From assembly GCA_964509605.1 (NCBI GenBank), contig CAZDXF010000001.1, forward strand, positions 79,619 through 143,618: a DNA stretch of 64,000 nt, read 5' to 3'. Below the pieces are notes generated by a model that was not told the origin of the DNA, ran no database searches, and saw only the letters and a program-made list of their open reading frames with translations. Shown here in pieces: positions 16,425 to 64,000 of the stretch. This DNA comes from an uncultured Candidatus Saccharibacteria bacterium. Lineage in GTDB: Bacteria > Patescibacteriota > Minisyncoccia > Phycocordibacterales > Zambryskibacteraceae. How positions within the stretch are numbered: the stretch's first letter is position 1; every line of letters begins with the position of its first letter. A program made the position numbers and the translations under genes.

Positions 16425-16997
16425 CTAAAACTTCCTTATAACGGCCTTTACAATAGCTGCAACCTGAAAACTTTCCTGAGGATACATTGGCTTGTAATTT
16501 TTATTGGCTGGTTCAAGCCAGACTTTTTCTCCTTTTTTTCTAAAGTATTTCATAGTCCAACCACCATCAATTTCAGCAATGACAATGTCTCCATCGCGCG
16601 GATCCCCCTTTCTCTCCACTAAAACATAATCACCCTCATCTATGTGAGCTTCTATCATTGAATCTCCTTTAACTTCCAAAATATAGGTTTTATCTTTTTC
16701 TTCAACGAGAAAATCTTCCAGACTTATTGTGTCCAAATTTTGCTCTTCGGTTTCTGTTGGAAGACCGGCCTCAACCAAACCCAAAATGGGTATTTCATCA
16801 AAAACTTTTGCCGGAACAATGCGTCCTTGTGGGTCTTTTGAGACAATTCCCTCCTCGACTAGCCAAGAAATTAGTTTATGAACCGAATTTTTGGATTTAA
16901 AACCCAAAAGAGCCATTACCTCTTTATATCCTGGCATTCGCCGATTTTTTCTGTAAAAATCCAGAATTCTCTCTTTTTGTTCTTGTTTTTTGTTCAT
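16425..16997 (-). CDS. lexA: LexA repressor (S24 peptidase)
   Basis: N-terminal winged HTH (ILDFYRKNRRMPGYKEVMALLGF) and a C-terminal S24 domain with GDSM and the catalytic Lys region. A GAAC-N4-GTTC box lies upstream. Confidence 0.9.
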   Translation of the reverse strand: MNKKQEQKERILDFYRKNRRMPGYKEVMALLGFKSKNSVHKLISWLVEEGIVSKDPQGRIVPAKVFDEIPILGLVEAGLPTETEEQNLDTISLEDFLVEEKDKTYILEVKGDSMIEAHIDEGDYVLVERKGDPRDGDIVIAEIDGGWTMKYFRKKGEKVWLEPANKNYKPMYPQESFQVAAIVKAVIRKF

Positions 16998-32422: not shown

Positions 32423-33805
32423 ATGCCGGACAACCTCATCAAAGAAAAAGTTCGCATCCCCCCTCAAAACATAGAAGCCGAAATGGCTCTTTTGGGTTCA
32501 ATAATGCTTCGCCCAGAAGCGATTTATGAAGTTATAGACATAGTCAGCCCAAAATCTTTTTATGCCGAAAAGCACTCTCTCATATTCGGCACAATGCTTG
32601 AACTTTTCAACAAGAGAGAACCCATAGATCTACTATCTCTATCTTCTCGTCTAAAAGAACGAAAGCTTTTAGACCAAATAGGTGGCGCGAGCTATCTAAC
32701 AGAGCTTGTAAACACAGTACCCTCGTCTGCAAACCTAAAACACTATGCAGAAATAGTTCAGAAAAAGTTTATGATGCGCCGACTGATAGAAGTGTCTGAA
32801 CACATATCTGGTCTCGGCTTTGAAGAGGCGCACGACCTGGAAGAAATTTTAGACAAAGCAGAAAAAGCAATTTACGAAATCACTGGAGCCGGAGCCACAA
32901 GAACTTTTACAGAAATCAGAGATGAGCTTTCTGAAGCTTGGGAAAGATTGGACAAACTTCACAATGCAAAAGGAGAGCTTCGCGGAGTACCTACTGGTTT
33001 TGCAGAGCTTGATCACAAACTGGCAGGATTCCAAAAATCAGACCTCGTCATCATTGCTGCTCGCCCATCAATGGGAAAAACTTCTTTGGCTTTGGACATT
33101 GCGCGCCAGACCGCAGTAAACCACCAAGTACCTGTCGGAATATTTTCTCTTGAAATGAGTGCTCAACAACTTGTGGATAGAATGCTCGCCGCTCAATCAA
33201 ATGTGGATGCTTGGAAACTTCGCACAGGAAAACTCTCGCGCGAAGAAGATTTTGCATCAATCCGCCAATCTCTAGACAAGCTCTCTCAAGCTCCAATTTA
33301 TATAGACGACCAGCCGGCAAACAATATTATGAAAATGCGCTCTGTTGCCAGGCGCCTTAAAAGTGAGAAAAATCTTGGCCTCGTAATAGTGGACTATCTT
33401 CAGCTTATGGTCCCCACCCAATCTCGTTCAAGCGACAATATGGTCCAGCAAGTCACGGAAATATCCAGATCTCTTAAAAACCTCGCCAGAGAGCTAAATA
33501 TCCCTGTTATAGCCCTTTCCCAGCTTTCTCGTGCCGCCGCCCAGACAGGAGAAAAGCCCAAGCTCCACCATCTAAGAGACTCTGGATCCATTGAGCAGGA
33601 TGCCGATGTTGTGATGTTTATTCACAGAGAAGACAAGTTTAAAGAAGAATCTGAAAAGACAAATATTGCCGAAATTCTCATTGAAAAACACAGAAATGGA
33701 GAAACTGGTAAAATAGAACTTTATTTCAACGAAAAGAAAGCTACTTTCCAAAGTATAGAAAATTCAAAATTTGGAGGAACAGAAAAAGAGTTTGAGAATT
33801 TCTAA
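32423..33805 (+). CDS. dnaB: Replicative DNA helicase DnaB
   Basis: N-terminal primase-interaction domain, a RecA-fold with Walker A ARPSMGKTS, H1/H4 motifs, and the characteristic Arg finger. Confidence 0.95.
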   Translation: MPDNLIKEKVRIPPQNIEAEMALLGSIMLRPEAIYEVIDIVSPKSFYAEKHSLIFGTMLELFNKREPIDLLSLSSRLKERKLLDQIGGASYLTELVNTVPSSANLKHYAEIVQKKFMMRRLIEVSEHISGLGFEEAHDLEEILDKAEKAIYEITGAGATRTFTEIRDELSEAWERLDKLHNAKGELRGVPTGFAELDHKLAGFQKSDLVIIAARPSMGKTSLALDIARQTAVNHQVPVGIFSLEMSAQQLVDRMLAAQSNVDAWKLRTGKLSREEDFASIRQSLDKLSQAPIYIDDQPANNIMKMRSVARRLKSEKNLGLVIVDYLQLMVPTQSRSSDNMVQQVTEISRSLKNLARELNIPVIALSQLSRAAAQTGEKPKLHHLRDSGSIEQDADVVMFIHREDKFKEESEKTNIAEILIEKHRNGETGKIELYFNEKKATFQSIENSKFGGTEKEFENF

Positions 33806-33808
33806 AAA

Positions 33809-34423
33809 ATGAGCGCTGTTCAAAAACTTACAGAATTGTTTAAAGATTTTCCAGGGATTGGTCCGAGACAAGCCAAGCGGTTTGTATATTTTCTTCTAAC
33901 AAGAAACAAAGATTATTTAAAAGACCTCACTGACGCTATTGAAGAGCTGAAAGCTGAAACGGCTTCTTGCTCATCTTGCTTCAGATTTTTTACAAAAGAA
34001 AAAAACGGATCTTTGGTCTGCCCTATCTGCTCTTCTGCAAACAGAGACAGTGCTTCTTTAATGATTGTCTCAAGAGATGTTGATTTGGAAAATATAGAAA
34101 AGACAGATACCTACAACGGTATGTATTTTGTATTGGGAGGGACCGTGCCAATACTTGAAAAAGAACCCGAAAAAAGAATCCGTATTAGAAATCTGATTAG
34201 AAAAATAGAGGACGGTAAAAAAGATATAAAAGAAATAATTTTTGCCTTGAGTCTTAACCCTGAGGGCGAAAATACAGAAGATTATGTCAGAGAAAAAATT
34301 AAAGATGTTTGTGAAAAAAATTCAATAAAAATTTCTGTTCTTGGCAGAGGTCTCTCCACAGGACTTGAGCTTGAATACTCCGACTCCGAAACCTTAAGAA
34401 ATGCTTTGAAAAATAGAACATAA
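33809..34423 (+). CDS. recR: Recombination protein RecR
   Basis: HhH (FPGIGPRQAKR), a C4 zinc finger (CSSC...CPIC), and a Toprim domain. Confidence 0.9.
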   Translation: MSAVQKLTELFKDFPGIGPRQAKRFVYFLLTRNKDYLKDLTDAIEELKAETASCSSCFRFFTKEKNGSLVCPICSSANRDSASLMIVSRDVDLENIEKTDTYNGMYFVLGGTVPILEKEPEKRIRIRNLIRKIEDGKKDIKEIIFALSLNPEGENTEDYVREKIKDVCEKNSIKISVLGRGLSTGLELEYSDSETLRNALKNRT

Positions 34424-35267: not shown

Positions 35268-36353
35268 TTATTGATCATCAGCGATATCAGGCTTTTCAAG
35301 TACGAGAGATTCCACTCCTACAGCTGTGCCCGTAATTCTTAAAACATCTTTATCTATTTTCCCTAGCTCTTTCCTAGAAGAATTAAAATGATTTACCACA
35401 GTACCAAGAGATGTGCCGAGTTTATCGTGATATTCTTCGTAACTTTTTATATGCTTCCCTAGTTCACTCACGCGCTTTATAATATCTTGCGCCGTTTCCT
35501 CTATTTGCAGGGCCTTTAGACCCTGAAGTACTGTTTGGAGATACGCCAAAAAAGAAGTTGGAGAAACGATAATTACCCTCTTTTCTTTAAATGCATATTC
35601 AATCAGATCTCTTGTATTGACCTTCACTGCACCCACTTGAGATATTAGCAAGTCATAATATATTGCCTCATGAGGAATGAACATAAAAGCAAAGTCCATA
35701 GTCCCCTCCATCGGTTTAACATATTTTGAAGTCTCATCTATCCGGTTTTTTAGGTCCGTTCTAAAAGCTTTTTCCAAGCGCTCTTTTTCTGCGGAGTCTT
35801 TTTCTTCCACCAGACGGTTATAGTTTTCAAGAGAAAACTTAGAATCAACTGGTATTATTTTATCTTTTACAAAAACTACCGCATCAACAATCGTTCCATC
35901 AGAAAAAGGATACTGCATTTGGAAACTCTTTGGCGGTAAAACATTTTTAAGGAGAGTTTCCAAATAATATTCTCCCAGTATCCCTCTTTGCTTTGGATTC
36001 TTTAAAATATCCTGGAGAGATTGCAGTTGGTCGGCAAAAGACACCACCTGCTTATTTGTTTCATCGAGTCGTGTAAGACGCTCTGTAATATCGCGAATAA
36101 TTTTTACAGATTCGCTAGACTGGTGTCGCATCGTTTCGTGTAGCTCTCTGGCATTTTCTGCCATCTTTGAATCAAGTGTTTTTGTAAGATCATTTAAATT
36201 GCGAGCCATTTCATTAAACTGATTTTGGATAAGCATAAGCCCTCCTTCCGGTTCACTTTCTTTTTTGCGACCTGAAAAAATGCGCCACAAAAAAACCGTG
36301 TTCAACACGAGAATAACCAAAAGAAAAACAAAAAAATAAGCGCTGTTTATCAT
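35268..36353 (-). CDS. rmuC: DNA recombination protein RmuC
   Basis: N-terminal TM segment, a long coiled coil, and a C-terminal RmuC nuclease-like domain (VDAVVFVKDKIIPVDSKF...FAFMFIPHEAIYYDLL). Confidence 0.8.
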   Translation of the reverse strand: MINSAYFFVFLLVILVLNTVFLWRIFSGRKKESEPEGGLMLIQNQFNEMARNLNDLTKTLDSKMAENARELHETMRHQSSESVKIIRDITERLTRLDETNKQVVSFADQLQSLQDILKNPKQRGILGEYYLETLLKNVLPPKSFQMQYPFSDGTIVDAVVFVKDKIIPVDSKFSLENYNRLVEEKDSAEKERLEKAFRTDLKNRIDETSKYVKPMEGTMDFAFMFIPHEAIYYDLLISQVGAVKVNTRDLIEYAFKEKRVIIVSPTSFLAYLQTVLQGLKALQIEETAQDIIKRVSELGKHIKSYEEYHDKLGTSLGTVVNHFNSSRKELGKIDKDVLRITGTAVGVESLVLEKPDIADDQ

Positions 36354-45505: not shown

Positions 45506-47284
45506 TCAAACGCCAACGGTGAGACGACGCTTCTTTGTCGCCACCTTTTTGGACTGAGACTTGCCATCGGAAGACTTCTGATCCTTAACGTTGCTGTCAA
45601 GAATCTTCTTGCCACGACGTCCTCCAAACTGACGCCCGGCGATGGTATCGCCGTGAATCAGCATGAAAACGTACGGGGCATAGGTCTCCTCCAACACAAG
45701 TTCTGCGAACGGCGCCCAATCGCTCGGGGCGGCCCGGAGAGCCAGCGCCTGTAGCATGACATACTCCTGGAAACGCATCAGAGTTCTGTCACTGTGCTCT
45801 TCGCACTGTTGCCACAGAGGGTGCAGAACATTAATCCTCAGGGTGCCGGTTTCCTCTTCCAATACCCAGAGTCGGTCGCTTCCCTGAATAGCATCATGCA
45901 CCAACTGAAGTCCGAGACTGTTGCTACGGACAATCGTTCGGCGTGTGCCTTTTGGACCAACGACCGTCATGGGACGGTGTTCTGGACGTTCCTTCTCGGG
46001 TTCAAAGTTCTCATTACCCTCACCCTCACCATTTGAGGGCTTCTCGGGACGAAGGTTATTGACGGCCAGAGACGTTTCCGGAGAAGGACTTCCCTTCTTT
46101 TCGAAATGCCCAGGTCCAATCGAACCCTTCTTGAAAGACTCAATGGCCTTGAGAAGCCCAGCAAACTGCGGCCTCTTCAACATCTCTTCGATGACTTTCA
46201 TCGAACGAATGCCGAGTTGCTGGTAGCGCTCCTCTTGCCGCTGATCATTAGCGTCCTGATAATGCTCGGCGCCGTGTTCAGCGAACCACTTTTCGAGGAT
46301 CACACAGAAACCAACCAGCGACTCGTCGGCCTCAAACGACCGGCGACTGGCGTGGAGTGTGATTGCACTGTTGAGGACCTCACCCTCGAAAAGACCAGAA
46401 CCCAGAGCAGACACAAGCTCATCCGAGAGCTTACACGCCTCCGGCAAGGACCGATTGAATGTCGAGAAGTTCAGACGAAAATCGTTGTCCTTCTCGCCAA
46501 CCAAGACCTTACCATTGCGCTTACCCTTCTTATCCTTCTGGGCCAAGAAGAGTCGGAAGTGGGTCTGCCCCGACTCCCTGTCTCGATAATCGACCTCTTC
46601 CAGCTTCCTGCCAGTGAAGTCCTTGGCCCTGATTTCACAACTCTGCCGTTCACCGTCTTCATCGACGACAGTCAACTCAATCACCGACTGGTTCTTACGC
46701 ATGGTGGAAGCGAAACGCTCCAACACACCATCACGAAGGGAATCCATAGTCACGATGTTGATCTGTCGATCGGTCGTGAACCCTTCGATTCTCACCTCAG
46801 TACGCCAGCGAACAGAGGACACTCCACGAACCACTCGCGTCTCTGCCCGAGAAAACTGCAGATCGAGGCGCTCCCTCATGGGGATGCCTTCGATCTTCTG
46901 CTGTTTCAGGAGATCGTCGGTAACGAAGCTCCACTCCAAGAAACCCTTGGGGTTCCGCTTGGTAGTGGAGGTAAAGATGAATCGAGCACACTTGCCCAAT
47001 GGCGAGATAAGCCCAAGACCAAAGCGTCCCAATTTATCCTTCTTCTTGATGGAAGAGGAAACGCTGGTCAGGGCCTTTTCAAACTCTTGCTGACTCACTC
47101 CATCTCCATCATCGCGGACAGCGATCTGACGCTGCTTCTGATTCACAACGATGGTGATAACCTGAGCTCCCTTGTCGAGACAGTTTTGCACGCTCTCGAG
47201 CAAGACATCCAGGATCCTAGGGTAGTACCCCGCAAGTTTGAGCAGGGCCGCTCCCTCATGAAAACTAAAAGGGCTCTGTTTCAC
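45506..47284 (-). CDS. GHKL-superfamily ATPase (MORC/MutL/Hsp90-like Bergerat fold) with unknown C-terminal domains; third gene of the GC-rich operon
   Basis: N-box ESVQNCLDKGA (ExxxNxxD), G1 RDDGDGV, and G2 LGRFGLGLIS, followed by ~450 aa without recognised motifs, including an E/G-rich linker. GTG start with an AAAGGAGA Shine-Dalgarno sequence. About 55% GC. Confidence 0.7.
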   Translation of the reverse strand: MKQSPFSFHEGAALLKLAGYYPRILDVLLESVQNCLDKGAQVITIVVNQKQRQIAVRDDGDGVSQQEFEKALTSVSSSIKKKDKLGRFGLGLISPLGKCARFIFTSTTKRNPKGFLEWSFVTDDLLKQQKIEGIPMRERLDLQFSRAETRVVRGVSSVRWRTEVRIEGFTTDRQINIVTMDSLRDGVLERFASTMRKNQSVIELTVVDEDGERQSCEIRAKDFTGRKLEEVDYRDRESGQTHFRLFLAQKDKKGKRNGKVLVGEKDNDFRLNFSTFNRSLPEACKLSDELVSALGSGLFEGEVLNSAITLHASRRSFEADESLVGFCVILEKWFAEHGAEHYQDANDQRQEERYQQLGIRSMKVIEEMLKRPQFAGLLKAIESFKKGSIGPGHFEKKGSPSPETSLAVNNLRPEKPSNGEGEGNENFEPEKERPEHRPMTVVGPKGTRRTIVRSNSLGLQLVHDAIQGSDRLWVLEEETGTLRINVLHPLWQQCEEHSDRTLMRFQEYVMLQALALRAAPSDWAPFAELVLEETYAPYVFMLIHGDTIAGRQFGGRRGKKILDSNVKDQKSSDGKSQSKKVATKKRRLTVGV

Positions 47285-47301
47285 TGCAGTCTCCTTTTTG
47301 C

Positions 47302-48072
47302 TTATTGCTGGTGGTTGTTGACAAGCTCGCGAGCCTTCTCACTACAGAGTCGACTCGACGCTTTCGACAGGCGAAACATACCATCAGATCCAGTCCGCTT
47401 ACGCAGCTCGTTACGTTGTTCTCGACTGGTTTCAGAAACCGCCCTTTCAAGAAGAGGGGTGATAGCCAAAACCAGATGAGCCAAGACCTCAATTGAAATT
47501 GGGTCTTGTTTCTCAAGATCGAGTGCGCCTTTTGCTACTTGAGTAACTGGTGTACTGGGGGGGTCCGTCTCAACATAAATCTTGATTGACGGAACCCGCA
47601 TCAAAACGCTAAGCAGGGTGGCCTTTTTCTTTGCCAACTCTTCCCCTGCTTCCCCATAGAGCCTTTCTACCTTCTGCGTTCTGGCAGTGTTGGTATCAGA
47701 ATCCGCACGAGCCAAGCGAAATACGCTGTGCGTATCACCGAAACCAAGATGTTCACGGGCTTCTTCTGGCGTCAAAATATCGTACGCCAAAAGCTCGGCT
47801 AGCTTGTGACTGACATGATCAGTACCATGCACATATTCCACAAGCTCGTACCCAACCGCTTCGAGAAATAGACGAAGCTTGATCAGTGGCTCTCCCAACG
47901 GAACATTTCGACCATAAATCCAGGCCGATACCGTGTCAGGATGAACGCGCACAAACTCAACCAGTGGCAATTTCGCCTTGCCAGCTTCCTTGCTACCTTT
48001 CGGTGGTAGAGAATGTTCGGCAAAATGTGCCAAACACTCAATTGTGGTGCCTCGAAACAGTTTACTCATCAC
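47302..48072 (-). CDS. Hypothetical helical protein (256 aa); second gene of the GC-rich operon
   Basis: AAGGAG Shine-Dalgarno sequence 6 nt upstream. About 55% GC. It lies 17 bp upstream of the GHKL ATPase gene. Confidence 0.6.
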   Translation of the reverse strand: MMSKLFRGTTIECLAHFAEHSLPPKGSKEAGKAKLPLVEFVRVHPDTVSAWIYGRNVPLGEPLIKLRLFLEAVGYELVEYVHGTDHVSHKLAELLAYDILTPEEAREHLGFGDTHSVFRLARADSDTNTARTQKVERLYGEAGEELAKKKATLLSVLMRVPSIKIYVETDPPSTPVTQVAKGALDLEKQDPISIEVLAHLVLAITPLLERAVSETSREQRNELRKRTGSDGMFRLSKASSRLCSEKARELVNNHQQ

Positions 48073-50951: not shown

Positions 50952-52664
50952 CTACCTCACATACTCTAGTGTATTTATATACATCCATTCCAAAAGCTGT
51001 CGCATCACAAAAGTCGCCCCAATAGTGTTTGCTCTCGGCCCCCTTTCCATTATTACCGCAAATGAATATTTTGGATTTTCATAAGGAAAAAAGCCAACGA
51101 CCCAAGAGTTTACAAATTCTTTCAAAGCACCGAGCTCTGCTGTTCCCGTCTTTCCCGCCACCGCAATACCAGGCATAGAAAGTCCTGAAGCCGTGCCTTC
51201 CTGAACAGACATTCTCATCCCCTCTCTCGCTATTTTTAAATTCTCCTCTTTGAAAGACAGTTTCTCCGCTTTATTTCTTTTATTAGGTTCAAGTTTTCTA
51301 ATCGTTGGATTCAACAAATATCCGCCGTTGGCAAGAGATGAAATAGCTCTAACAGCCTGAATTGGTGTAACTTGAAATCCATATTGACCAATTGAAGTGT
51401 TGTAAGTATCTCCCACCCTCCAAACATCTTCACCAAAAGTTTCAAGCTTCCACTGCGGGCTAGGGACATTGCCAAACTGCTCAAGACCAATATCAACTCC
51501 AGTAGGTTTTCCAAAACCAAATCGCTCCATATAATCTTTTATTTTTGTAATTCCCAAGCCAGGCTGATCACCATATCCTCCGCCTATTGAAAAAAAATAT
51601 ACATTTGAAGACACAGCAATAGCTCTCCTCATATCAGTCAAACCGTGAGCTTTCCAGTCTCTAAAAATAGTTGTCTGCGATGGGTTGTAAGGATTTGGAA
51701 TGGTTATTGAACCAGTGCTCAAAATTTCTTTGTTTGGAGAAATAATATTTTCTTCAAGTGCGGCAACAGAAAGAAATGGTTTGATTATAGAACCTGGAAT
51801 ATAGAGTCCAGAAATTGCTCTGTTTAAAAAAGGATTGCTTTTGTTATTCAAAAAATTATTAATCTGCTGGGAATCTTTTCCTTGAGTCATTGTGTCGGAG
51901 TCGTATTCGGGAAAACTCGTCATTGCCAAAATTTCTCCAGTGTGAATATCCATCAATATTCCAGCTCCGCCCTGAAAACCATAGTCCGAAGATGTTTTTT
52001 CGATAATTTCATAGAGCTTGTCAGAAACTCTTGCATCTATTGAAAGAGACAAATTTTCTCCATCTTTTGGAAGTCTAAGGGTATTTTCCGACTGAACTTC
52101 ACCAAAGGCATCTGTTTCTGTAATTTTCAAACCATTTCTTCCAGCAAGAATATCTTCGTAGTATATTTCCACACCATCCCTTCCGCTAAATTTATCATCA
52201 TAATAAATTCCAAATTTATCTTTTGAAGGATATTTCAAATAACCAACAATGTGAGAAATACCTGAAAAATCTGCATATTCACGCAGAGAAAAATCACCAT
52301 CCGGATTCAAACCGTTCCAAACCAAATGCTCTCCATTTCTATCGAGAATTAGGCCTCTGTTGGCAAAAATCGTAGTATGTCGCAAGTGATTGTTCTGACT
52401 TCTGGTTTCAAAAGCTTCCCCTTGAACAACTTGCAAAAACCAAAGCTTCCCTACAAAAATAAGACCTATTAGGACAAAACTTGCCCCAAGAAAAAATACC
52501 GCTCTCCTATCAACAGGTTTCTCTATTCTTCCTTCAAACTGATGGACATCAAACTCTGGCAGATTTTTTGAATCAAGAAAAATCTCATCAGGATCTATTT
52601 CCTTATTGCGATATGAACCGCGGTTGAACATTCCGCGTAAAAATTTTTTCCAAAAGTGAATCAT
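50952..52664 (-). CDS. mrdA: Class B penicillin-binding protein PBP2 (elongasome transpeptidase)
   Basis: TM anchor plus transpeptidase motifs (SIIKP, SSN, KTGTA). It lies downstream of mreBCD. Confidence 0.85.
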   Translation of the reverse strand: MIHFWKKFLRGMFNRGSYRNKEIDPDEIFLDSKNLPEFDVHQFEGRIEKPVDRRAVFFLGASFVLIGLIFVGKLWFLQVVQGEAFETRSQNNHLRHTTIFANRGLILDRNGEHLVWNGLNPDGDFSLREYADFSGISHIVGYLKYPSKDKFGIYYDDKFSGRDGVEIYYEDILAGRNGLKITETDAFGEVQSENTLRLPKDGENLSLSIDARVSDKLYEIIEKTSSDYGFQGGAGILMDIHTGEILAMTSFPEYDSDTMTQGKDSQQINNFLNNKSNPFLNRAISGLYIPGSIIKPFLSVAALEENIISPNKEILSTGSITIPNPYNPSQTTIFRDWKAHGLTDMRRAIAVSSNVYFFSIGGGYGDQPGLGITKIKDYMERFGFGKPTGVDIGLEQFGNVPSPQWKLETFGEDVWRVGDTYNTSIGQYGFQVTPIQAVRAISSLANGGYLLNPTIRKLEPNKRNKAEKLSFKEENLKIAREGMRMSVQEGTASGLSMPGIAVAGKTGTAELGALKEFVNSWVVGFFPYENPKYSFAVIMERGPRANTIGATFVMRQLLEWMYINTLEYVR

Positions 52665-52939
52665 TATTTATGAAAAGAGAAATTTTCTTTTAGAACATAG
52701 GACACCAGAAACAAAAAAGAAAGACCTAAGGTTGTGGCGTAATCTGTCAAAAATTTTCCGCTTATCCCACCATAAAGTGTATCCATAAAGACCCCCACAA
52801 TCAACGCCTCATAAAAAGACCTGAAAACAAATATTCCGAAAGCAGATAGAGCAACTGTAATCCACCAAGGAAAAATAAAAATGGAAATAAATAAAATTAC
52901 AGAAAAAATAATTCTTTTTGAAAAATATTTTTGCATCAC
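52664..52939 (-). CDS. mreD: Rod shape-determining protein MreD
   Basis: 91-aa polytopic membrane protein immediately after mreC. Confidence 0.7.
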   Translation of the reverse strand: MMQKYFSKRIIFSVILFISIFIFPWWITVALSAFGIFVFRSFYEALIVGVFMDTLYGGISGKFLTDYATTLGLSFLFLVSYVLKENFSFHK

Positions 52940-53736
52940 CTTCTTTCTACCTCAACCCATTGCAGACTGAAAATGTTTACGGGAGAAGATAGGAAAAGTT
53001 TTTTAAATGAATCGGTCTCTCTTTGTTCAATCGACTCTACTTTTGCCAATATCTGACTTGGAGAAGAGGGTAAAACGAAAATGTCTCCTACCACAACATC
53101 TGTCCCTGCGGGTACAGAAACTTCAAAGTTTCCACCCCCTCTACCCTTGAGAGTAAATGAGAGTCCGTTTCTTAAAACTTCAGCGACTGTCTCTCTATTT
53201 GCGCTTGAAAAGAGTTCTGCTTTTGAAGTACCGCGACCGACTTCCGAAACCCAACCAACAAGAATTCCTTTGTCCCAAATGTGAGCACCAGAAAAAACCC
53301 CTTCATCGCTTCCAGATTCAATAACCAAAATATCAAAGGGAGACTGAGGGGGTTTGGCCAAAACGCGAGAGATCAAAGAATTTTCCTGAGCTTTTTTGCT
53401 CAAAATTTCATTAAGAAAAAGCTCTTCCCTGTTTAAAGAACGGAGAGACAAAATCTCTGCCTCAAGTTCAGAAACCCTCCTCTCAAGATTATCCTTTTCT
53501 TCCACAAGTTTTTTCTTAGAAGAAATCAAACCTATTGGATGAGAAATTATGTTTGAAAAAAAATCTCTAGTTTTCCAAAAAAAACTTCCGACAGGATAAA
53601 ACGCCCCGAAAAGAAAATTTGGAAAAAACAAATGAAATACAAATAAAAATACAATAAGAGCAGAAGTTATCTTGAAAGCTCTTTTGCCTGGAGAAGAATT
53701 TTTCCTTTTACTTGGTTGGAGGTAATTCATCTTCAT
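52936..53736 (-). CDS. mreC: Rod shape-determining protein MreC
   Basis: N-terminal TM segment, a coiled coil (LERRVSELEAEILSL), and beta-rich C-terminal domains. Confidence 0.85.
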   Translation of the reverse strand: MKMNYLQPSKRKNSSPGKRAFKITSALIVFLFVFHLFFPNFLFGAFYPVGSFFWKTRDFFSNIISHPIGLISSKKKLVEEKDNLERRVSELEAEILSLRSLNREELFLNEILSKKAQENSLISRVLAKPPQSPFDILVIESGSDEGVFSGAHIWDKGILVGWVSEVGRGTSKAELFSSANRETVAEVLRNGLSFTLKGRGGGNFEVSVPAGTDVVVGDIFVLPSSPSQILAKVESIEQRETDSFKKLFLSSPVNIFSLQWVEVERR

Positions 53737-54772
53737 TAGATATGAGAACCTCTTTAAAATTATTTATGTCTTCCAAAATTATTCCTGTCCCTCTAGCAAC
53801 AGTTGAAAGCGGGTCGGGAGCAACATAAACAGGAATTTTTATTTCTTCTTGAAGAAGCTCGGCTAGACCTTGAATAAGAGCGCCTCCTCCAGCCAAATGC
53901 ATTCCCCTATGCATAATATCCGACAGAACTTCTGGTGGAGTCGTCTCCAGCACTTCTCTGGTCGCTTCAACCAGACTCGCTATTGATTGAGATATTGCTT
54001 CCCTGACATCTGCATCAGTAATGACAACTTCTCTAGGAAGACCTGTAACCAAATCTCTCCCTTTTACAGACGCTTCAAGCGGAGCATCCCCCGGCAAAAC
54101 TGAGCCAATTGCTATTTTTATATTCTCGGCGGTTTTTTCTCCTATCAAAATTTTAAATTCACTTCTTATATATGAAATTATGTCGTTGTTAATCTTGTCT
54201 CCAGCGATTCGCAAATTTTTTGAACGCACCACTCCGCCCAGAGAAATTACCGCAATATCTGTTGTACCACCTCCCATATCAAGCACCATACTACCCACTG
54301 GATCGTTCACGGGAAGTCTCATTCCAATAGCTGCCGCCATCGGTTCTTCTACTATATGAACCTCGCCAGCTCCAGCGTTTCTCGTAGCATCACGCACTGC
54401 CCTTATTTCTACATTTGTAATACCAGAAGGCACTCCCACCACCACTCTTGGACCCAAAAGTTTTTTACCGGTTTTTTGAGCTTTATTTAAAAGATAAGTA
54501 ATCATTTCTTCCGTAACTTCAAAATCTGAAATGACTCCATCAACAAGAGGTTTTACAGCTGTAATATGAGAAGGTGTTCTGCCAAGCATCTGTTTTGCCT
54601 CACTTCCAACAGCAACTACTCTGCCGGTCTTTTGATTTAAAGCGACTACCGAAGGTTCATTGATGACAATTCCGCTTCCACGCAAATAGACAAGAGTATT
54701 TGCAGTTCCCAAATCAATACCGATATCGTTAGACAGAAGTCTTCTGAATTTTTCAAATGAATCTTTTTTCAT
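53708..54772 (-). CDS. mreB: Rod shape-determining protein MreB
   Basis: Actin-fold motifs (IGIDLGTANT, DMGGGTTD, LAGGGALI). Confidence 0.9.
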   Translation of the reverse strand: MKKDSFEKFRRLLSNDIGIDLGTANTLVYLRGSGIVINEPSVVALNQKTGRVVAVGSEAKQMLGRTPSHITAVKPLVDGVISDFEVTEEMITYLLNKAQKTGKKLLGPRVVVGVPSGITNVEIRAVRDATRNAGAGEVHIVEEPMAAAIGMRLPVNDPVGSMVLDMGGGTTDIAVISLGGVVRSKNLRIAGDKINNDIISYIRSEFKILIGEKTAENIKIAIGSVLPGDAPLEASVKGRDLVTGLPREVVITDADVREAISQSIASLVEATREVLETTPPEVLSDIMHRGMHLAGGGALIQGLAELLQEEIKIPVYVAPDPLSTVARGTGIILEDINNFKEVLISNEDELPPTK

Positions 54773-58284: not shown

Positions 58285-58950
58285 TTAAGGCAAGACAGAA
58301 GCTATGTGCTCAAGAAGCATTTTAACAGAAGGTGATCTACTGAACATATATTCTCTAGCTTTCACTATTTCCTGCAGAGCAAAATTCAAATCTTCACTTC
58401 TATTATCTTTAATAAAAAGTTCTGTTTCTAAAGCAGAAAGAAGGTTGATGGCTTTTGCTTTATCTTTTTCGTCCGATATTTCTTTTATAATTTTTGCTCT
58501 TTCTCCCTGATTTGAATTCAAAAAATTCCTAGCCGATTTTTCTTCCTCCAGAGCTTCTCTGCCCAGATCTAATAAAAAAAGACGAGATCGAAGTGTCGGC
58601 AAAAATATTTCATGATTCGGAACAATTATAAAAAAATGATTGTCTGGATTTGGTTCTTCAAAAAGTTTAAGTAGCGAATTTTGTGCTTCAAAAGTTATAG
58701 AATCAAAAACTAAAACAAAAAATTTCTTATTTCCAAATGGTTTTGTTGAATGAAGATCAGAAATCTTTCTACCATCATCAATTCCAAAAGTCTCATATTC
58801 CCCCATCCAAAAATCGGGGTTTCCTCTGATTTTAGTTTTTAGATCTTTTTCTATAAACACAAGCACTTTGGAAAGTGCCGTATTTCTATCTCCGCAAATG
58901 CCATAAGCGTGGTGAATAGATTCCGGTTTTATATAAAGAGAAAGATTCAT
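58285..58950 (-). CDS. holB: DNA polymerase III clamp-loader delta' (or delta) subunit-like
   Basis: AAA+-like fold lacking an intact P-loop, with an SRC-type motif (TLRSRLF). Confidence 0.7.
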   Translation of the reverse strand: MNLSLYIKPESIHHAYGICGDRNTALSKVLVFIEKDLKTKIRGNPDFWMGEYETFGIDDGRKISDLHSTKPFGNKKFFVLVFDSITFEAQNSLLKLFEEPNPDNHFFIIVPNHEIFLPTLRSRLFLLDLGREALEEEKSARNFLNSNQGERAKIIKEISDEKDKAKAINLLSALETELFIKDNRSEDLNFALQEIVKAREYMFSRSPSVKMLLEHIASVLP

Positions 58951-59168: not shown

Positions 59169-60191
59169 CTATCGCTTTGCAATAATAGATTTCTTATATG
59201 TATCCAAATGCTCAAGAGCAATTCCTGTCCCCCTAGCAACACAATAAATTGGATCTTTTGCTAAAACCGCTTTCACTCCCGTTCTTCTAAAAATAAGCTC
59301 CGGAAGATTTCTCAACTGAGAAGTCCCTCCTGTCATTATAATTCCACGATCAATAATATCTGAGGAAAGTTCTGGCGGAGTTTCTTGCAATACATCCTTT
59401 ATTGCTTTTACAATCTCGCGAAGTTCTTTGCCGATTGATTTTACAATTTCATTTGTTTTTATTTCCACAGACCTAGGCAATCCTAAAACATAGTCCCTGC
59501 CTTTTATGGTCATTGAAAGCTCCTCGTCCAAAGGAACAGCTGATCCAACTTTTATTTTTATTTCCTCAGCTGTTCTGTCGCCTATCGCTAAGTTAAAAGT
59601 CTTTTTAATATAATCTGCAATCGCTGTATCAATTCTATTTCCTGCACACTTCACCGAAGTTGATGACACTATTCCACCCAAAGAAATTACCGCCACATCT
59701 GTAGTCCCTCCCCCAATATCAACAATCATATGCCCCAATGGTTCATGAATTGGAATACCCGCTCCAATGGCCGCTAAAATCGGCTCTTTAACAACATAAG
59801 CATTTTTTGCTCCGGCTTTTACTGCCGCTTCTACCACCGCCCTTCTTTCTGTTGAGCTGACACCTGCGGGAACAGAAACCAAAACATCTGGCTTTGAAAT
59901 ATTCCATCTTCCCATGGCTTTATTTATATAATACCTAAGCATGGCTTCAGTCGTTCTGTAATCTGCGATAACGCCATCTTTCATTGGACGATAAGCAATA
60001 ATATTTTCTGGAGTTTTTCCTATCATTTTCTTTGCATCAATCCCTATTGCCAAAATCTTATTGTCTTCTTCAGAAACGGCCACCACAGAGGGTTCATTTA
60101 GTACAATTCCTCGCCCAGGAACAAAGACGAGAACACTAGTCGTTCCTAAATCAATACCGAGTTTTTTGGAGAAAATACCCATATAATTCAA
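59169..60191 (-). CDS. MreB/Mbl-family actin homologue (second paralogue)
   Basis: 340 aa with actin-fold motifs (LGIDLGTTSV, DIGGGTTD, MTGGTS). Confidence 0.85.
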   Translation of the reverse strand: MNYMGIFSKKLGIDLGTTSVLVFVPGRGIVLNEPSVVAVSEEDNKILAIGIDAKKMIGKTPENIIAYRPMKDGVIADYRTTEAMLRYYINKAMGRWNISKPDVLVSVPAGVSSTERRAVVEAAVKAGAKNAYVVKEPILAAIGAGIPIHEPLGHMIVDIGGGTTDVAVISLGGIVSSTSVKCAGNRIDTAIADYIKKTFNLAIGDRTAEEIKIKVGSAVPLDEELSMTIKGRDYVLGLPRSVEIKTNEIVKSIGKELREIVKAIKDVLQETPPELSSDIIDRGIIMTGGTSQLRNLPELIFRRTGVKAVLAKDPIYCVARGTGIALEHLDTYKKSIIAKR

Positions 60192-60332: not shown

Positions 60333-61112
60333 ATGAGGGGCAAAATTTTCAAAAAAGCACTTATAACCATTGGGGTCGTAGCAATATTTGCTTTGGTAAT
60401 ACTAATGCAAAGCGGATGGAGACCTGAAGGTTCTCTTGTTTTGTCGGGGGCAAAAATTTCAATAGAAGTCCCTCTTGAAGGATCTGTTGTATTTTTAGAC
60501 GGCAAAGAGAAAGCTTATACTTCAAAAGATCGCGAATTAGTATCTCTGCCAAAAGTTTCAAAAGGAGAACACACGATAGTCGTGCATAAAGAAAATTTTT
60601 GGCCTTGGGCAAAAACTATTCAATCACAAAAAGGCGATGAATTTTATCTTAAAAGTTTTCATCTGCCACAAAGACTTGATGTTGAAAACTTGGAGCTAGG
60701 AAGTGAAGCCAGAGAAAATGCAAGAAGAAGACTTTTGAGCCACACAGCACCGAGCTCAAACAAACCAGTCTCTTCTGCAGACGAAAAAGCTTCCCTTTGG
60801 ACAGAAAATAATAAAATATTTGTGGAGTGGAAAGGCGGAGACAAACCTCATTATTTCTGTAAAGAAGAAATTTGCGACAGCAGAATAGAGGTATTAAACG
60901 CTCTCTCAAATATAATAAGTGCCGATTTTCTCAAAGATAGAAATGATGTCGTTATCTTTTCAAACGAAGAAGGAATATTCGCTATAGAAGTAGATAAAAC
61001 CGAAACACAAAACTTCCAACCGATATGGAGAGTAAGAAACCCAAAATTTGTCCAAAGCCCAGATGGTCTTTTTGTTGAAGAAGGCGGAGGAATCTATTTT
61101 ATCGCTTTCTAG
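60333..61112 (+). CDS. Hypothetical membrane-anchored protein (PEGA-like beta-sandwich N-region)
   Basis: N-terminal TM helix, then SLVLSGAKISIEVPLEGSVVFLDGKEKAYTS...GEHTIVV. Confidence 0.45.
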   Translation: MRGKIFKKALITIGVVAIFALVILMQSGWRPEGSLVLSGAKISIEVPLEGSVVFLDGKEKAYTSKDRELVSLPKVSKGEHTIVVHKENFWPWAKTIQSQKGDEFYLKSFHLPQRLDVENLELGSEARENARRRLLSHTAPSSNKPVSSADEKASLWTENNKIFVEWKGGDKPHYFCKEEICDSRIEVLNALSNIISADFLKDRNDVVIFSNEEGIFAIEVDKTETQNFQPIWRVRNPKFVQSPDGLFVEEGGGIYFIAF

Positions 61113-61156: not shown

Positions 61157-63049
61157 ATGAGAGTCTTTGCTGTTATCCCAATTTCTAAAGGGATATCTAA
61201 AAACCTACTTTCTTACTTTGGCCCTGATTCAATTCCATTAGGCTCTTTAGTTTCTGTGCCACTCAGAGGAAAAGCTACTCCAGCAATAGTGGTAAAAAAA
61301 CAAGATGTCTTACACATAAAAAGCGAGTTGCGAAGTGCCAAATTTGAGCTTAAAAAAATAATTGCTGTAAAAGAAAAACATTTCTTGCCCGATAAGTTTT
61401 TGGAAAGCGCAGAGCAAACAGCAGAATTTTTTGCTTCTCCGATAGGGTCTTTTCTCGGTTCTGTAGTACCAAAATTTGTATTGGAACATTCAAGTAAAAT
61501 TGGAACAAAAGAAACCGGCACAGCCCATGGTGCTGGTGAAAAATTTGTAATACAGGCAGATGACGAAGAAAGAATTGTAAATTACAAAAGTTTTATCAGA
61601 GAAGAATTCGCAAAAAAACGATCTGTTTTTTTCTGCCTGCCGACAATAGAAGACATTAATAAAATAGAAAAGGTTTTGGATAGAGGTATAGAGCAATACA
61701 CTGTTTCTTTTCATAGCGGGCTTTCAAAAAAAGAATTTCTAAAAAGATACGAGGTGGTTAAAGATAGATCCCATCCTGTTTTGATTATCGGGACAGTCCC
61801 CTTTCTCTCTCTGTTTAGACAAGACATAGGATCAATAATTTTGGACAGAGAAAATTCTAGAGGATACAGAACTCTTTCAAGACCCTTTGTGGATTTAAAA
61901 AAATTCGCGGAAATTTTTGCTAAAAACAGAAAAGCTCGCTTTATTTTGGGAGACTCATTTCTCTCTGTAGAAACTCTATGGAGACAAAAAAATGATGAAC
62001 TCTTGGAATTCTCTCCAGTAAAATTCAGAAATTTAAGCTCTGCTGAGTGCGTGCTTATAGATATGAAAAAGAAAAAAGACTCCGAAGAGAAGGAGTTTAG
62101 GGTACTGAGTCCAGAGCTTGAAGAGCTCATCGAATTTAACAAGAAAAAAAATCAAAACCTTTTTATATTTAGTTCTAGAAAGGGTCTCTCTCCAGTGACG
62201 GTATGCGGAGATTGCGGAAAAGTGGTCGTATGCAAATCCTGTGGAGCTGTGTTAGTGCTTCACTCTGGAACACAAAACAAAGAAAATTTCTTTTTGTGCC
62301 ACAAGTGCGGAGAACAAAGAAGCGCTACGGAAAAATGTGAAAATTGCCGAAGCTGGAAACTTAATCCTCTTGGTATTGGAATAGAAAAAGTTGAAATAGA
62401 AATAAAGAAAAAATTCCCAGATGTAAAAATCTTTAGAGTAGACAAAGAATCGGCCAAAACTCAGAAAAAAGCTCGAGAAATTGTTTCAAAATTTGTCTCT
62501 TCCCCAGGGTCTATCCTTCTGGGCACAGAGATGGCTCTACTTTCTCTTTCGGAGTCGGTCGAAAATACAGCGGTCGCCTCTATGGACTCAATGTTTTCAA
62601 TTCCAGATTTTAGAATAAACGAAAGAGTTTTTTATATTCTCCAAAAAGTGAGATCTTTGGCAAAAAACATTTTTCTAGTTCAGACCAGAAACAGCGATAA
62701 CCCACTTTTTGAAAAAGCTATAAATGGTAGTGTTACGGAATTTTTTAGACAAGAGATAGAAGAAAGAGAAAAATTTAATTATCCTCCGTTCAAAATCTTT
62801 GTAAAAATTAGTTTGCAAGGGAAAAAAGCTGTTGTTTTGAAAGAAATGGAAGCTATTGAAAAAATGTTTGAAGGCGAAGACTTGAGCGTCTTTACTGGAT
62901 CTATCTCCGGAACTGGCGAAAAAATATTTTCTGTTCATGCATTAATGCGCTTTTCGCCAAAAGATTGGCCTAAAAAGTCTGTTATTGAAAAGATTCTACT
63001 TCTGCCACCACAATTCAAAATCCAAGTAGACCCAGAGAGTTTGCTTTAG
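61157..63049 (+). CDS. priA: Primosomal protein N' (PriA) homologue with degenerate helicase motifs
   Basis: N-terminal 3'-DNA-binding-like domain and the PriA Cys-rich region (CGDCGKVVVCKSCG...CHKCGEQ...CENC), with the C-terminal domain. Walker A is replaced by GTAHGAGEKF and the DEAH box by ILDRENS. Confidence 0.7.
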   Translation: MRVFAVIPISKGISKNLLSYFGPDSIPLGSLVSVPLRGKATPAIVVKKQDVLHIKSELRSAKFELKKIIAVKEKHFLPDKFLESAEQTAEFFASPIGSFLGSVVPKFVLEHSSKIGTKETGTAHGAGEKFVIQADDEERIVNYKSFIREEFAKKRSVFFCLPTIEDINKIEKVLDRGIEQYTVSFHSGLSKKEFLKRYEVVKDRSHPVLIIGTVPFLSLFRQDIGSIILDRENSRGYRTLSRPFVDLKKFAEIFAKNRKARFILGDSFLSVETLWRQKNDELLEFSPVKFRNLSSAECVLIDMKKKKDSEEKEFRVLSPELEELIEFNKKKNQNLFIFSSRKGLSPVTVCGDCGKVVVCKSCGAVLVLHSGTQNKENFFLCHKCGEQRSATEKCENCRSWKLNPLGIGIEKVEIEIKKKFPDVKIFRVDKESAKTQKKAREIVSKFVSSPGSILLGTEMALLSLSESVENTAVASMDSMFSIPDFRINERVFYILQKVRSLAKNIFLVQTRNSDNPLFEKAINGSVTEFFRQEIEEREKFNYPPFKIFVKISLQGKKAVVLKEMEAIEKMFEGEDLSVFTGSISGTGEKIFSVHALMRFSPKDWPKKSVIEKILLLPPQFKIQVDPESLL

Positions 63050-63123: not shown

Positions 63124-63573
63124 ATGCGCAAAACTATATGTGCCCTGATTTTTGGGCTTTCCGTTTTCGCATGCGAAAACGGAGCGTCGGTGGTAGATAG
63201 ACCAAATAGTAGTACCGGTGCTTCGGAGACATTGTTTAGGTTCGAACTGGCCCCGCAAATGAACGGTCATCTTTTCAGGAGCGGAGACTATTTCTTCTAT
63301 GTGATGTGTATGGGGCTTAACAGCCGAACTCGTTTTGAGAACGACCCACCGTGGTGGAACGCTCAGGTTAGGTTCGGACTAAGTCTGGAGAAATTGAAAA
63401 TCGACTCTCTTAGACTGGATATGGTTCAGCCTGGGCACTGGAATACTCACTACGGTAAAGATGAGTGGCGTCAGAATTCACCCAGCGCGACTCCAATCAG
63501 AGATATCAAGACAATCACCATCAACAGAACTGAGGGTTCTGCTTGTTGGCTCCTTCGAACAAAAGAATTCTGA
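63124..63573 (+). CDS. Hypothetical lipoprotein (149 aa); GC-rich cassette gene
   Basis: AAGGAGA Shine-Dalgarno sequence. Signal peptide with a lipobox-like LSVFAC. About 50% GC. A GC hairpin terminator follows. Confidence 0.5.
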   Translation: MRKTICALIFGLSVFACENGASVVDRPNSSTGASETLFRFELAPQMNGHLFRSGDYFFYVMCMGLNSRTRFENDPPWWNAQVRFGLSLEKLKIDSLRLDMVQPGHWNTHYGKDEWRQNSPSATPIRDIKTITINRTEGSACWLLRTKEF

Positions 63574-63577
63574 CCCC

Positions 63578-63615
63578 ACGAAGAACCTCACAGTTCTTCG
63601 TGGGGTTCTTTTCTT
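63578..63615 (+). terminator. Rho-independent terminator
   Basis: CCACGAAGAACCUCACAGUUCUUCGUGG + GGUUCUUUUCUU. Confidence 0.6.
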
Positions 63616-63700: not shown

Positions 63701-64000
63701 ATGGCAAAAATAGTTCAAAAAGAAGATAAAATACTTCGCTCTATTGCAAAAGAAGTACCAATAAGCGAAATAAAAAGCAAAAAAGTTCAGAAAATCATAT
63801 CTGATATGAAAGCTCTTTTGGCAAAAGAGCCGGATGGCGTAGCGATAGCGGCGCCTCAAATCGGAGTTCCCTTTAGAATTTTTGTAGTGTCAGGAAAAGT
63901 AAAATCTTTTCTAGAAAAAACTGAAAAAGAGTACCCCGACTCTGTTTATATAAACCCTAAAATAACCAAATTATCAAAAGACAAAAAACTAATGGAAGAA
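63701..64000 (+). CDS. def: Peptide deformylase (5' 100 codons; truncated by window end)
   Basis: GVAIAAPQIGVPFRIFVV matches the conserved GxGxAAxQ motif 1 region of PDF. Confidence 0.85.
   Translation, partial: MAKIVQKEDKILRSIAKEVPISEIKSKKVQKIISDMKALLAKEPDGVAIAAPQIGVPFRIFVVSGKVKSFLEKTEKEYPDSVYINPKITKLSKDKKLMEE

Follow-up and report, generated by a model that had tools for sequence, protein, structure and literature searches.

PriA proteins without a working motor have been described in one bacterial group and made by mutation in another. The PriA of Deinococcus radiodurans has no ATPase or helicase activity; it binds single-stranded DNA (ssDNA), forks and DnaB, and carries an arginine at the position of the Walker lysine (Lopper, Boone & Morrow 2015, PMC4504706). 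A 2017 review named Deinococcus as the only exception to the conservation of the PriA helicase (PMC5778457). In Escherichia coli, PriA K230R (priA300) has lost the ATPase, helicase and translocase activities, and this mutant still assembles primosomes and restarts replication through the PriA-PriB pathway (PMC5778457). According to a 2026 cryo-electron microscopy study, binding of lagging-strand ssDNA by motif IV and rotation of the Cys-rich region (CRR) trigger partner recruitment and preprimosome assembly (PMC13594977). Here we analyzed the priA gene at 61157-63049 (+) of a 64,000-nucleotide stretch of contig CAZDXF010000001.1 from an uncultured patescibacterium (assembly GCA_964509605.1); this whole 64-kb stretch is called the window below. 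We consider it likely that the product is a pseudohelicase PriA orthologue unable to bind or hydrolyse ATP, which would most likely serve as an ATP-independent scaffold for fork recognition and DnaB loading.

The open reading frame (ORF) at 61157-63049 encodes 630 amino acids plus a stop codon and is a PriA orthologue. The original prediction, made from the sequence alone, had called it a PriA homologue, and database searches agree. NCBIfam priA models matched the protein at E-values of 1e-68 to 1e-67, and phmmer found the Klebsiella pneumoniae and E. coli PriA chains of the PDB at about 1e-31. When a profile of the Parcubacteria PriA family was used with HMMER, the PDB PriA chains were found at 5e-50. 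The AlphaFold2 (AF2) model, built from an 80-sequence alignment, had a predicted local distance difference test (pLDDT) of 87.7 and a predicted template modelling score (pTM) of 0.86. The nine best Foldseek matches to this model in the PDB were PriA chains only (E 1e-38 to 1e-27, TM 0.70-0.77), and the first match outside PriA was Mfd (E 8e-8, TM 0.30). The best reciprocal TM score was obtained with 6DCR, a winged-helix deletion of E. coli PriA (TMq 0.77, TMt 0.76), which fits a natural PriA without a winged helix. Like the Parcubacteria protein, 6DCR lacks the winged helix, but it keeps a functional ATPase core.

Of the Pfam models, that of the 3' DNA-binding domain alone exceeded its cutoff (3'BD; PF17764, 25.7 bits, cutoff 22.7), and no match to DEAD, ResIII or Helicase_C was obtained. 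As a control, the intact E. coli and Bacillus PriAs matched DEAD, ResIII, Helicase_C, PriA_C and the CRR model. TIGR00595, the model for "replication restart helicase PriA", scored 225.9 bits, just under its cutoff of 230.35. All sub-models of PRK05580 were far under their cutoffs. The PRK14873 models, which describe actinobacterial PriA, scored 21-51 bits, the best being 50.8 against a cutoff of 812.

SF2 helicases bind and hydrolyse ATP with motifs Q, I, II and VI. Motifs Ia, Ib, IV and V touch the nucleic acid, and motif III couples the two groups. We aligned the 630-aa protein with canonical PriAs and scored conservation in three samples: a residue table of 80 sequences, a close set (the best 120 of 1,283 word-index matches), and a divergent set (the query and the best 150 of 3,114 representatives of 50%-identity clusters with E<=1e-30). 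Each of the ATPase motifs Q, I, II, III and VI was found to be replaced or deleted.

The P-loop had been placed at GTAHGAGEKF (aa 121-130, nt 61517-61546). That segment falls in a variable linker of low pLDDT, and the true motif I site is QADDEERI (aa 133-140, 61553-61576), a pseudo-Walker A that replaces GxxGxGKT. GVTGSGKTEVY was placed opposite QADDEERIVNY by MAFFT, run with only E. coli PriA, and again by L-INS-i, run with six canonical PriAs. The HMMER profile alignment begins at Y143, opposite E. coli Y234, and runs ungapped, so R139 falls opposite K230. Compared with E. coli, G227 is replaced by D, G229 by E and K230 by R, with arginine in 80/80 sequences. In the AF2 model strand b1 covers residues 129-133 and the next helix starts from 136, which leaves 2 loop residues versus the 8 expected of a P-loop. 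The earlier statement that the protein has no GKT/S P-loop is correct, as the pattern [AG]xxxxGK[ST] occurs nowhere in its 630 residues.

The replacement of DEEH by ILDRENS was also confirmed. In phmmer, MAFFT and L-INS-i alignments, ILDRENS (aa 228-234) lines up exactly with IDEEHDS of the E. coli and K. pneumoniae PriAs. Within this pseudo-motif II (IILDRENS, aa 227-234, 61835-61858), D230 is kept and E232 is invariant; the catalytic Glu (E321 in E. coli) has become R231, with R or K in 80/80, and the His has become N233. Across the family the motif reads D-[RK]-E-[NS]. Pseudo-motif III reads LGDSFLSVE (61946-61972), with DSF in place of SAT, and D266 occupies the position of E. coli S356 in 80/80. 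At the motif VI site, ILQKV-----RSLAKN (62636-62668), the QxxGRxGR arginine finger is deleted, and the 5-residue gap is present in 120/120 close and 151/151 divergent-set members. The Q-motif segment, with its conserved Gln upstream of motif I, is deleted along with the winged-helix domain (E. coli ~106-211). Walker A and B are therefore replaced rather than shifted by all three methods. The predicted loss of the ATPase site stands, and the degeneration is wider than predicted since motifs Q, III and VI are lost too.

The same residues bear on whether the protein could still hydrolyse ATP with a non-canonical set of ligands, for example with R139 contacting phosphate. Conservation of R139, D230 and E232 at the positions of the Walker lysine, the Walker B Asp and the second Glu would suit such an enzyme, and a second nucleotide site has been debated for E. 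coli PriA (PMC5778457). However, the Gly-rich loop has become four acidic residues with only 2 loop residues, neither the Q-motif segment nor motif VI with its arginine finger is left, and Arg or Lys takes the place of the catalytic Glu. In addition, K230R alone kills the ATPase of E. coli PriA, and the Arg-bearing PriA of D. radiodurans is without ATPase (PMC5778457, PMC4504706). We regard an active ATPase as very improbable.

In contrast to the ATP site, the nucleic-acid motifs are retained. Motif Ia (VFFCLPTIEDINK, 61625-61663) contains an invariant P162. Motif Ib reads FHSGLSKKE (61703-61735) versus LHSGLNDSE in phmmer and L-INS-i alignments. Motif IV is SSRKGLSP (62162-62197), in which R341 (79/80) and K/R342 (80/80) correspond to E. 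coli R427 and R428. In E. coli PriA these two arginines bind lagging-strand ssDNA in the PriA pore (PMC13594977). Motif V, SILLGTEMA (62510-62536), is partly kept, with G456 and T457 in 80/80 and E458 replacing Q. H369 and E410, the latter in 76/80, match E. coli H455 and E492, which stabilise the rotated state of the CRR (PMC13594977, PMC5778457). By alignment, then, the motif group for ATP binding and hydrolysis is gone together with motif III, and the nucleic-acid group is kept.

The architecture of PriA is preserved around the altered site: the 3'BD, two RecA-like lobes, the predicted two-zinc Cys-rich insertion in lobe 2 and a putative C-terminal domain are present, without a winged helix. 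In the 3'BD (aa 1-110, 61157-61486), the pocket Tyr Y20 (Y18 in E. coli) was found in 80/80 sequences. K/R66 occupies the position of E. coli K61, and S/T19 stands at that of D17, a change that falls within canonical PriA variation. The winged-helix domain (E. coli 106-200, ~90 residues) has no counterpart in the 630-aa protein by tblastn, AF2 or L-INS-i; together with the Q-motif segment it is replaced by an 18-aa variable linker (aa 111-128, 61487-61540), which lies in the gap opposite E. coli ~106-211. This linker is the least conserved part of the protein, with a majority fraction of 0.32 and AF2 pLDDT of 72-77. The Pfam winged-helix model also fails on Bacillus PriA, so that the winged helix is not a universal feature.

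The CRR (aa 350-397, 62204-62347) holds eight Cys in four CxxC pairs, at aa 350/353, 359/362, 381/384 and 394/397, with two predicted Zn sites. These Cys are invariant or nearly so in the 80 and 151 sequences, in line with the Cys-rich zinc-binding region proposed at first, while the Pfam Zn_ribbon_PriA model scores 11.9 against a cutoff of 26. The putative C-terminal domain (aa 547-630, 62795-63046) has no Pfam PriA_C match; AF2 predicts a beta-alpha-beta structure at 547-624, and the Foldseek TMq of 0.77 corresponds to a full-length alignment. The domain order claimed in the original prediction holds only in part, as the winged helix and the Q-motif segment are absent.

We analyzed conservation of the altered site across the family. 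All of the best 120 of 1,283 matches are ~630 aa long, and their sources belong to the Parcubacteria group (Zambryskiibacteriota, Tayloriibacteriota, Paceibacterota, Minisyncoccia). The best 150 of the 3,114 representatives are 36-52% identical to the query and also all ~630 aa. Over the 271 sampled sequences (120 in the close and 151 in the divergent set), identity spans 36-87%. A Walker A was present at the motif I site in 0/271 sequences (120 close homologues, the query and 150 divergent representatives). The candidate of a shifted Walker A was rejected as well: [AG]xxxxGK[ST] occurred in 0/120 close homologues, and the 2 occurrences among the 150 divergent ones are chance matches at non-homologous positions. 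The Walker lysine is replaced by Arg in 80/80 sequences of the residue table and in 150/151 of the divergent set. At positions 135-138 more than 90% of the sequences have an acidic residue (D or E), and Q133, R139, Y143, I147 and R148 are invariant (80/80 for Q133 and R139). The pseudo-P-loop is among the most conserved segments of the protein, scoring 0.74 versus 0.32 for the linker, and the family alignment has 58 invariant columns, the replacement residues included.

Selection on the gene was estimated against the two closest relatives for which DNA was available. The proportion of nonsynonymous differences (pN) was 0.06-0.19 versus ~0.72 for synonymous ones (pS). The ratio of the corresponding substitution rates (dN/dS) was 0.036-0.084 for the gene as a whole and 0.034-0.092 for the dead lobe 1; these ratios are approximate because dS is saturated, whereas the pN/pS contrast is robust. 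Together with the invariance of the replacement residues, a dN/dS of ~0.03-0.09 indicates that the protein without its ATP site is a selected pseudohelicase. Judged from these alignments, loss of the ATP site is conserved and under selection across the whole Parcubacteria group.

A decaying relic that is leaving a reduced genome would also have lost helicase motifs, and genomes of the candidate phyla radiation (CPR) are reduced. The ORF, however, is full-length in the 271 relatives, the 58 invariant columns include the replacement residues, dN/dS is 0.03-0.09 in all domains, and the predicted fold is of high confidence. Conservation and purifying selection together exclude a pseudogene, to which we assign a negligible probability.

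Many members of the family, for example P0007, P0008, P0058, P0088 and P0096, are deposited as "hypothetical protein", likely because their TIGR00595 scores fall just below the cutoff. This annotation gap spans the whole clade, so that pipelines mislabel many Parcubacteria PriAs.

We compared this PriA with the known types. The canonical PriAs (TIGR00595, PRK05580) share with it the fold, the domain order save for the winged helix, the CRR, the DNA-contacting motifs and the gene position. The full set of Q, GxxGxGKT, DEEH, SAT, GTQ and QxxGRxGR is present in each of six canonical PriAs, which represent five phyla, and not in the Parcubacteria PriA. This multi-phylum reference panel was obtained by tblastn of E. 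coli PriA against a plasmid collection, in which no Deinococcus or Thermus replicon matched. As a separate observation, Pseudomonas aeruginosa plasmids of ~170-190 kb carry an annotated priA (for example NZ_CP096947.1, 63142-65142) whose product shares 39% identity with E. coli PriA across 93% of its length.

Like D. radiodurans PriA, the Parcubacteria protein has degenerate motifs I and II, an Arg for the Walker Lys (R139, 80/80) and a conserved DNA-binding architecture. The proposed role, an ATP-independent loading platform, is the same for both. Our protein differs in phylum, being from the Parcubacteria group and not from Deinococcus-Thermus; its degeneration is documented for motifs Q, I, II, III and VI, a conserved acidic run replaces the P-loop glycines, and there is no winged helix. 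The Deinococcus-Thermus PriA was compared by its published description, and the likeness may reflect either shared descent or convergence. When the D. radiodurans priA primers (PMC4504706) were searched against genome contigs, the forward 20-mer gave 0 matches and the reverse 18-mer gave at least 120 chance matches in GC-rich genomes, none of which was from Deinococcus or encoded PriA.

The engineered E. coli K230R, K230A and K230D proteins are motor-dead PriAs in which the scaffold is separable from the motor, as proposed for the Parcubacteria PriA. K230R differs in that it is a single change in an otherwise intact site. It also needs PriB, DnaT and DnaC, none of which is recognised here, and it fails in the PriA-PriC pathway.

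Actinobacterial PriA, the family of Mycobacterium tuberculosis Rv1402, gave a further comparison. The PriA of Tsukamurella tyrosinosolvens (L128:2940-4931, NZ_LR134460.1; PRK14873 group) has lost motifs I, II, III, V and VI, and only its 3'BD matches Pfam. Among 121 Mycobacteriales PriAs (P0269-P0388 and Tsukamurella), a Walker A is present at the site in 0/121, motif II is an invariant W-D-D-G-D, motifs III, V and VI are lost and the 8 CRR Cys are invariant; one of these proteins is named "primosomal protein N' family DNA-binding protein" in its source. Actinobacterial and Parcubacteria PriAs are thus alike in having lost the motor motifs, in keeping the 3'BD and the 8 CRR Cys, and in being short (~660 aa in the former). 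They differ in the replacement sequences. BLASTP scores of the Parcubacteria family were 120-175 bits with canonical PriAs and 0-75 bits with the actinobacterial type (Tsukamurella), and for this reason the two motor losses are probably independent. The tuberculosis literature continues to treat Rv1402 as a "primosomal helicase" that is essential, and it names inhibitors of the Staphylococcus aureus PriA ATPase as leads (PMC5694481).

The original prediction had stressed how notable such a PriA would be. It is less remarkable than implied: a PriA of this kind has been known from Deinococcus-Thermus since 2015, and the motif-dead PriA of the Mycobacteriales makes the Parcubacteria finding less singular. 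What is new is the Parcubacteria group, the more thoroughly dismantled ATP site and the absence of a winged helix. A search of the literature on PriA in CPR, Patescibacteria and Parcubacteria found no paper describing a PriA pseudohelicase there.

The gene order around priA bears on orthology. The 5' part of def (peptide deformylase) begins at 63701 and leaves the window at 64000 (+), with a tblastn E-value of 2.5e-31 to the def of relative L122. The order priA-def-fmt is found in four relatives (L122, L123, L125, L126), and an annotated Bacillus record reads coaBC-priA-def-fmt-rsmB. Occupation of this canonical priA-def(-fmt) slot indicates an orthologue and not a spare paralogue.

If the gene were nevertheless a neofunctionalised paralogue, an intact priA elsewhere would perform restart and this copy something else. 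Such a case could be made from the scope of the data, 64 kb of a contig of ~204 kb, and from the TIGR00595 score of 225.9, just under 230.35. Against it, tblastn found no second PriA-like sequence in the 64-kb window, the canonical slot is occupied at five loci as in the annotated Bacillus, and both JGI and NCBI name the same protein primosomal protein N' in these genomes. Two priA genes are also unusual for small CPR genomes. We think a paralogue improbable.

The presumed client of PriA loading, dnaB, lies 29 kb away and is unlinked (32423-33805, +; Pfam DnaB_C 333.9 and DnaB 125.5 bits). It is followed after 3 bp on the same strand by recR (33809-34423), so the earlier statement that the genome keeps dnaB and recR is correct. 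An RmuC-family gene (35268-36353, -) and a gene for a LexA-like S24 peptidase (16425-16997, -) were also seen in the window.

The loader genes bear on a different role, in which the main job of PriA would be that of a general DnaB-loading adaptor, at the origin included, in a lineage without DnaC/DnaI-type loaders, comparable to the mycobacterial "helicase loader". Neither dnaB nor priA has a recognisable loader gene nearby, where loaders, DciA included, were looked for in the window and not genome-wide. Mycobacteria are without DnaC, DnaT, PriB and PriC and their motif-dead PriA is essential (PMC5694481), and D. radiodurans PriA binds DnaB directly (PMC4504706). The invariant 3'BD pocket Tyr, which recognizes the nascent 3' end, points instead to forks and D-loops as substrates. 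The data fit restart and initiation alike. A general adaptor of this kind seems unlikely to us.

We return to the ATP-independent scaffold for fork recognition and DnaB loading. A scaffold-only role, as first suggested, is supported in silico because the DNA-contacting and CRR residues are kept, purifying selection is strong, and D. radiodurans PriA and E. coli K230R provide precedents. For the Parcubacteria PriA we infer fork binding, DnaB loading and an absence of ATPase activity. The P-loop has collapsed into an acidic helix cap, Q-A-D-D-E-E-R. In the proposed mechanism, the protein would recognize an abandoned fork through the leading-strand 3' end and the lagging-strand ssDNA without ATP, the CRR would clamp the ssDNA, and PriA would then act as a platform for reloading DnaB, directly or via a partner. 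A duplex lagging arm needs prior unwinding (PMC13594977), and a PriA without a motor should therefore act on forks and D-loops whose lagging arm is already single-stranded. Forks with a duplex lagging arm would require another helicase or a nuclease.

Several points weigh against this scaffold. E. coli needs PriA as a helicase in the PriA-PriC pathway and wherever the lagging strand of a fork is duplex (PMC5778457, PMC13594977); a pure scaffold would accordingly serve fewer substrates. A Pfam comparison of 50 ORFs of the window, priA included, brought up no PriB, DnaT, DnaD, DnaI or DciA. PriA-like genes were looked for in 64 kb of the genome, and a second intact priA, though unlikely, could lie elsewhere. 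The proposed function of the Parcubacteria family draws on sequence and predicted structure.

Some neighbouring genes vary among relatives. The upstream gene for a 259-aa membrane protein (60333-61112) was considered as a PriA partner and rejected, as its conservation stops at L125 and L126, the closest relatives, and does not extend to L122 or L123. Between priA and def lies a clade-specific insertion of ~650 bp, where the gap in more distant relatives is only 14-23 bp. It contains a 149-aa ORF (63124-63573, +) with a lipoprotein-like signal, LSVFAC, and no Pfam match; this ORF is conserved in L125 and absent from L126. It is followed at 63573-63615 by a strong hairpin and T-run terminator, the source of weak Thr/His-leader Rfam matches. 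An RNA gene in this gap was rejected: no Rfam match reached the gathering score, and the weak leader-like matches cover the terminator.

On the other side of priA, two full-length MreB paralogues are encoded at 59169-60191 (-) and 53708-54772 (-), with 445 and 446 bits. Together with genes for MreC (52936-53736, -) and a PBP2-type transpeptidase (50952-52664, -) they lie within 10 kb. The mreB gene adjoining priA keeps its position in all relatives examined. A 221-aa DNA_pol3_delta2 protein, similar to the clamp-loader delta' subunit, is encoded at 58285-58950 (-) and covers Pfam positions 80-157 of 161, the C-terminal half. This short gene lies two genes from priA, and its position is kept in L122, L123, L125 and L126.

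Farther away, a GC-rich patch at 45506-48072 (-) has a GC fraction of 0.517 versus ~0.38 for the window, with long spurious ORFs on the opposite strand, and may have been acquired horizontally. Two proteins are encoded there: one of 592 aa carries an HATPase_c_3 domain at its N-terminus and weakly matches TmtA in PADLOC (E 2.6e-7), and the other, of 256 aa, has no Pfam match. PADLOC gave no defence-system match for PriA. A 173-aa SET-domain protein (2265-2786, +; Pfam SET E 6e-16) is encoded between dnaJ and a histidine kinase gene.

The two independent-looking losses, in the Parcubacteria and in the Mycobacteriales, each with invariant replacement residues of its own, come on top of the published Deinococcus-Thermus case and suggest that PriA has lost its motor repeatedly. 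Tentatively, and with more doubt than confidence, we propose that such losses are recurrent and lineage-defining, that the Parcubacteria pocket has been rebuilt as a charged patch, and that the core and maybe ancestral role of PriA is that of a loader or scaffold to which the helicase is an add-on. The charged patch would consist of the acidic Q-A-D-D-E-E beside R139, with Arg or Lys for the catalytic Glu. Such a patch could mimic a bound nucleotide and so hold the two lobes clamped on DNA, or it could provide a new surface on which DnaB or SSB docks. Where the site is dead, PriA inhibitors directed at the ATPase would find nothing to act on. At 630 aa and without a winged helix, the Parcubacteria PriAs also offer natural minimal scaffolds for structural studies of how DnaB is loaded independently of ATP where no PriB, DnaT or DnaC is recognised. 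The Parcubacteria (more than 150, and up to ~3,000, clusters at 50% identity) and the Mycobacteriales together strengthen the case that what is indispensable in PriA is fork recognition and helicase loading, not unwinding.

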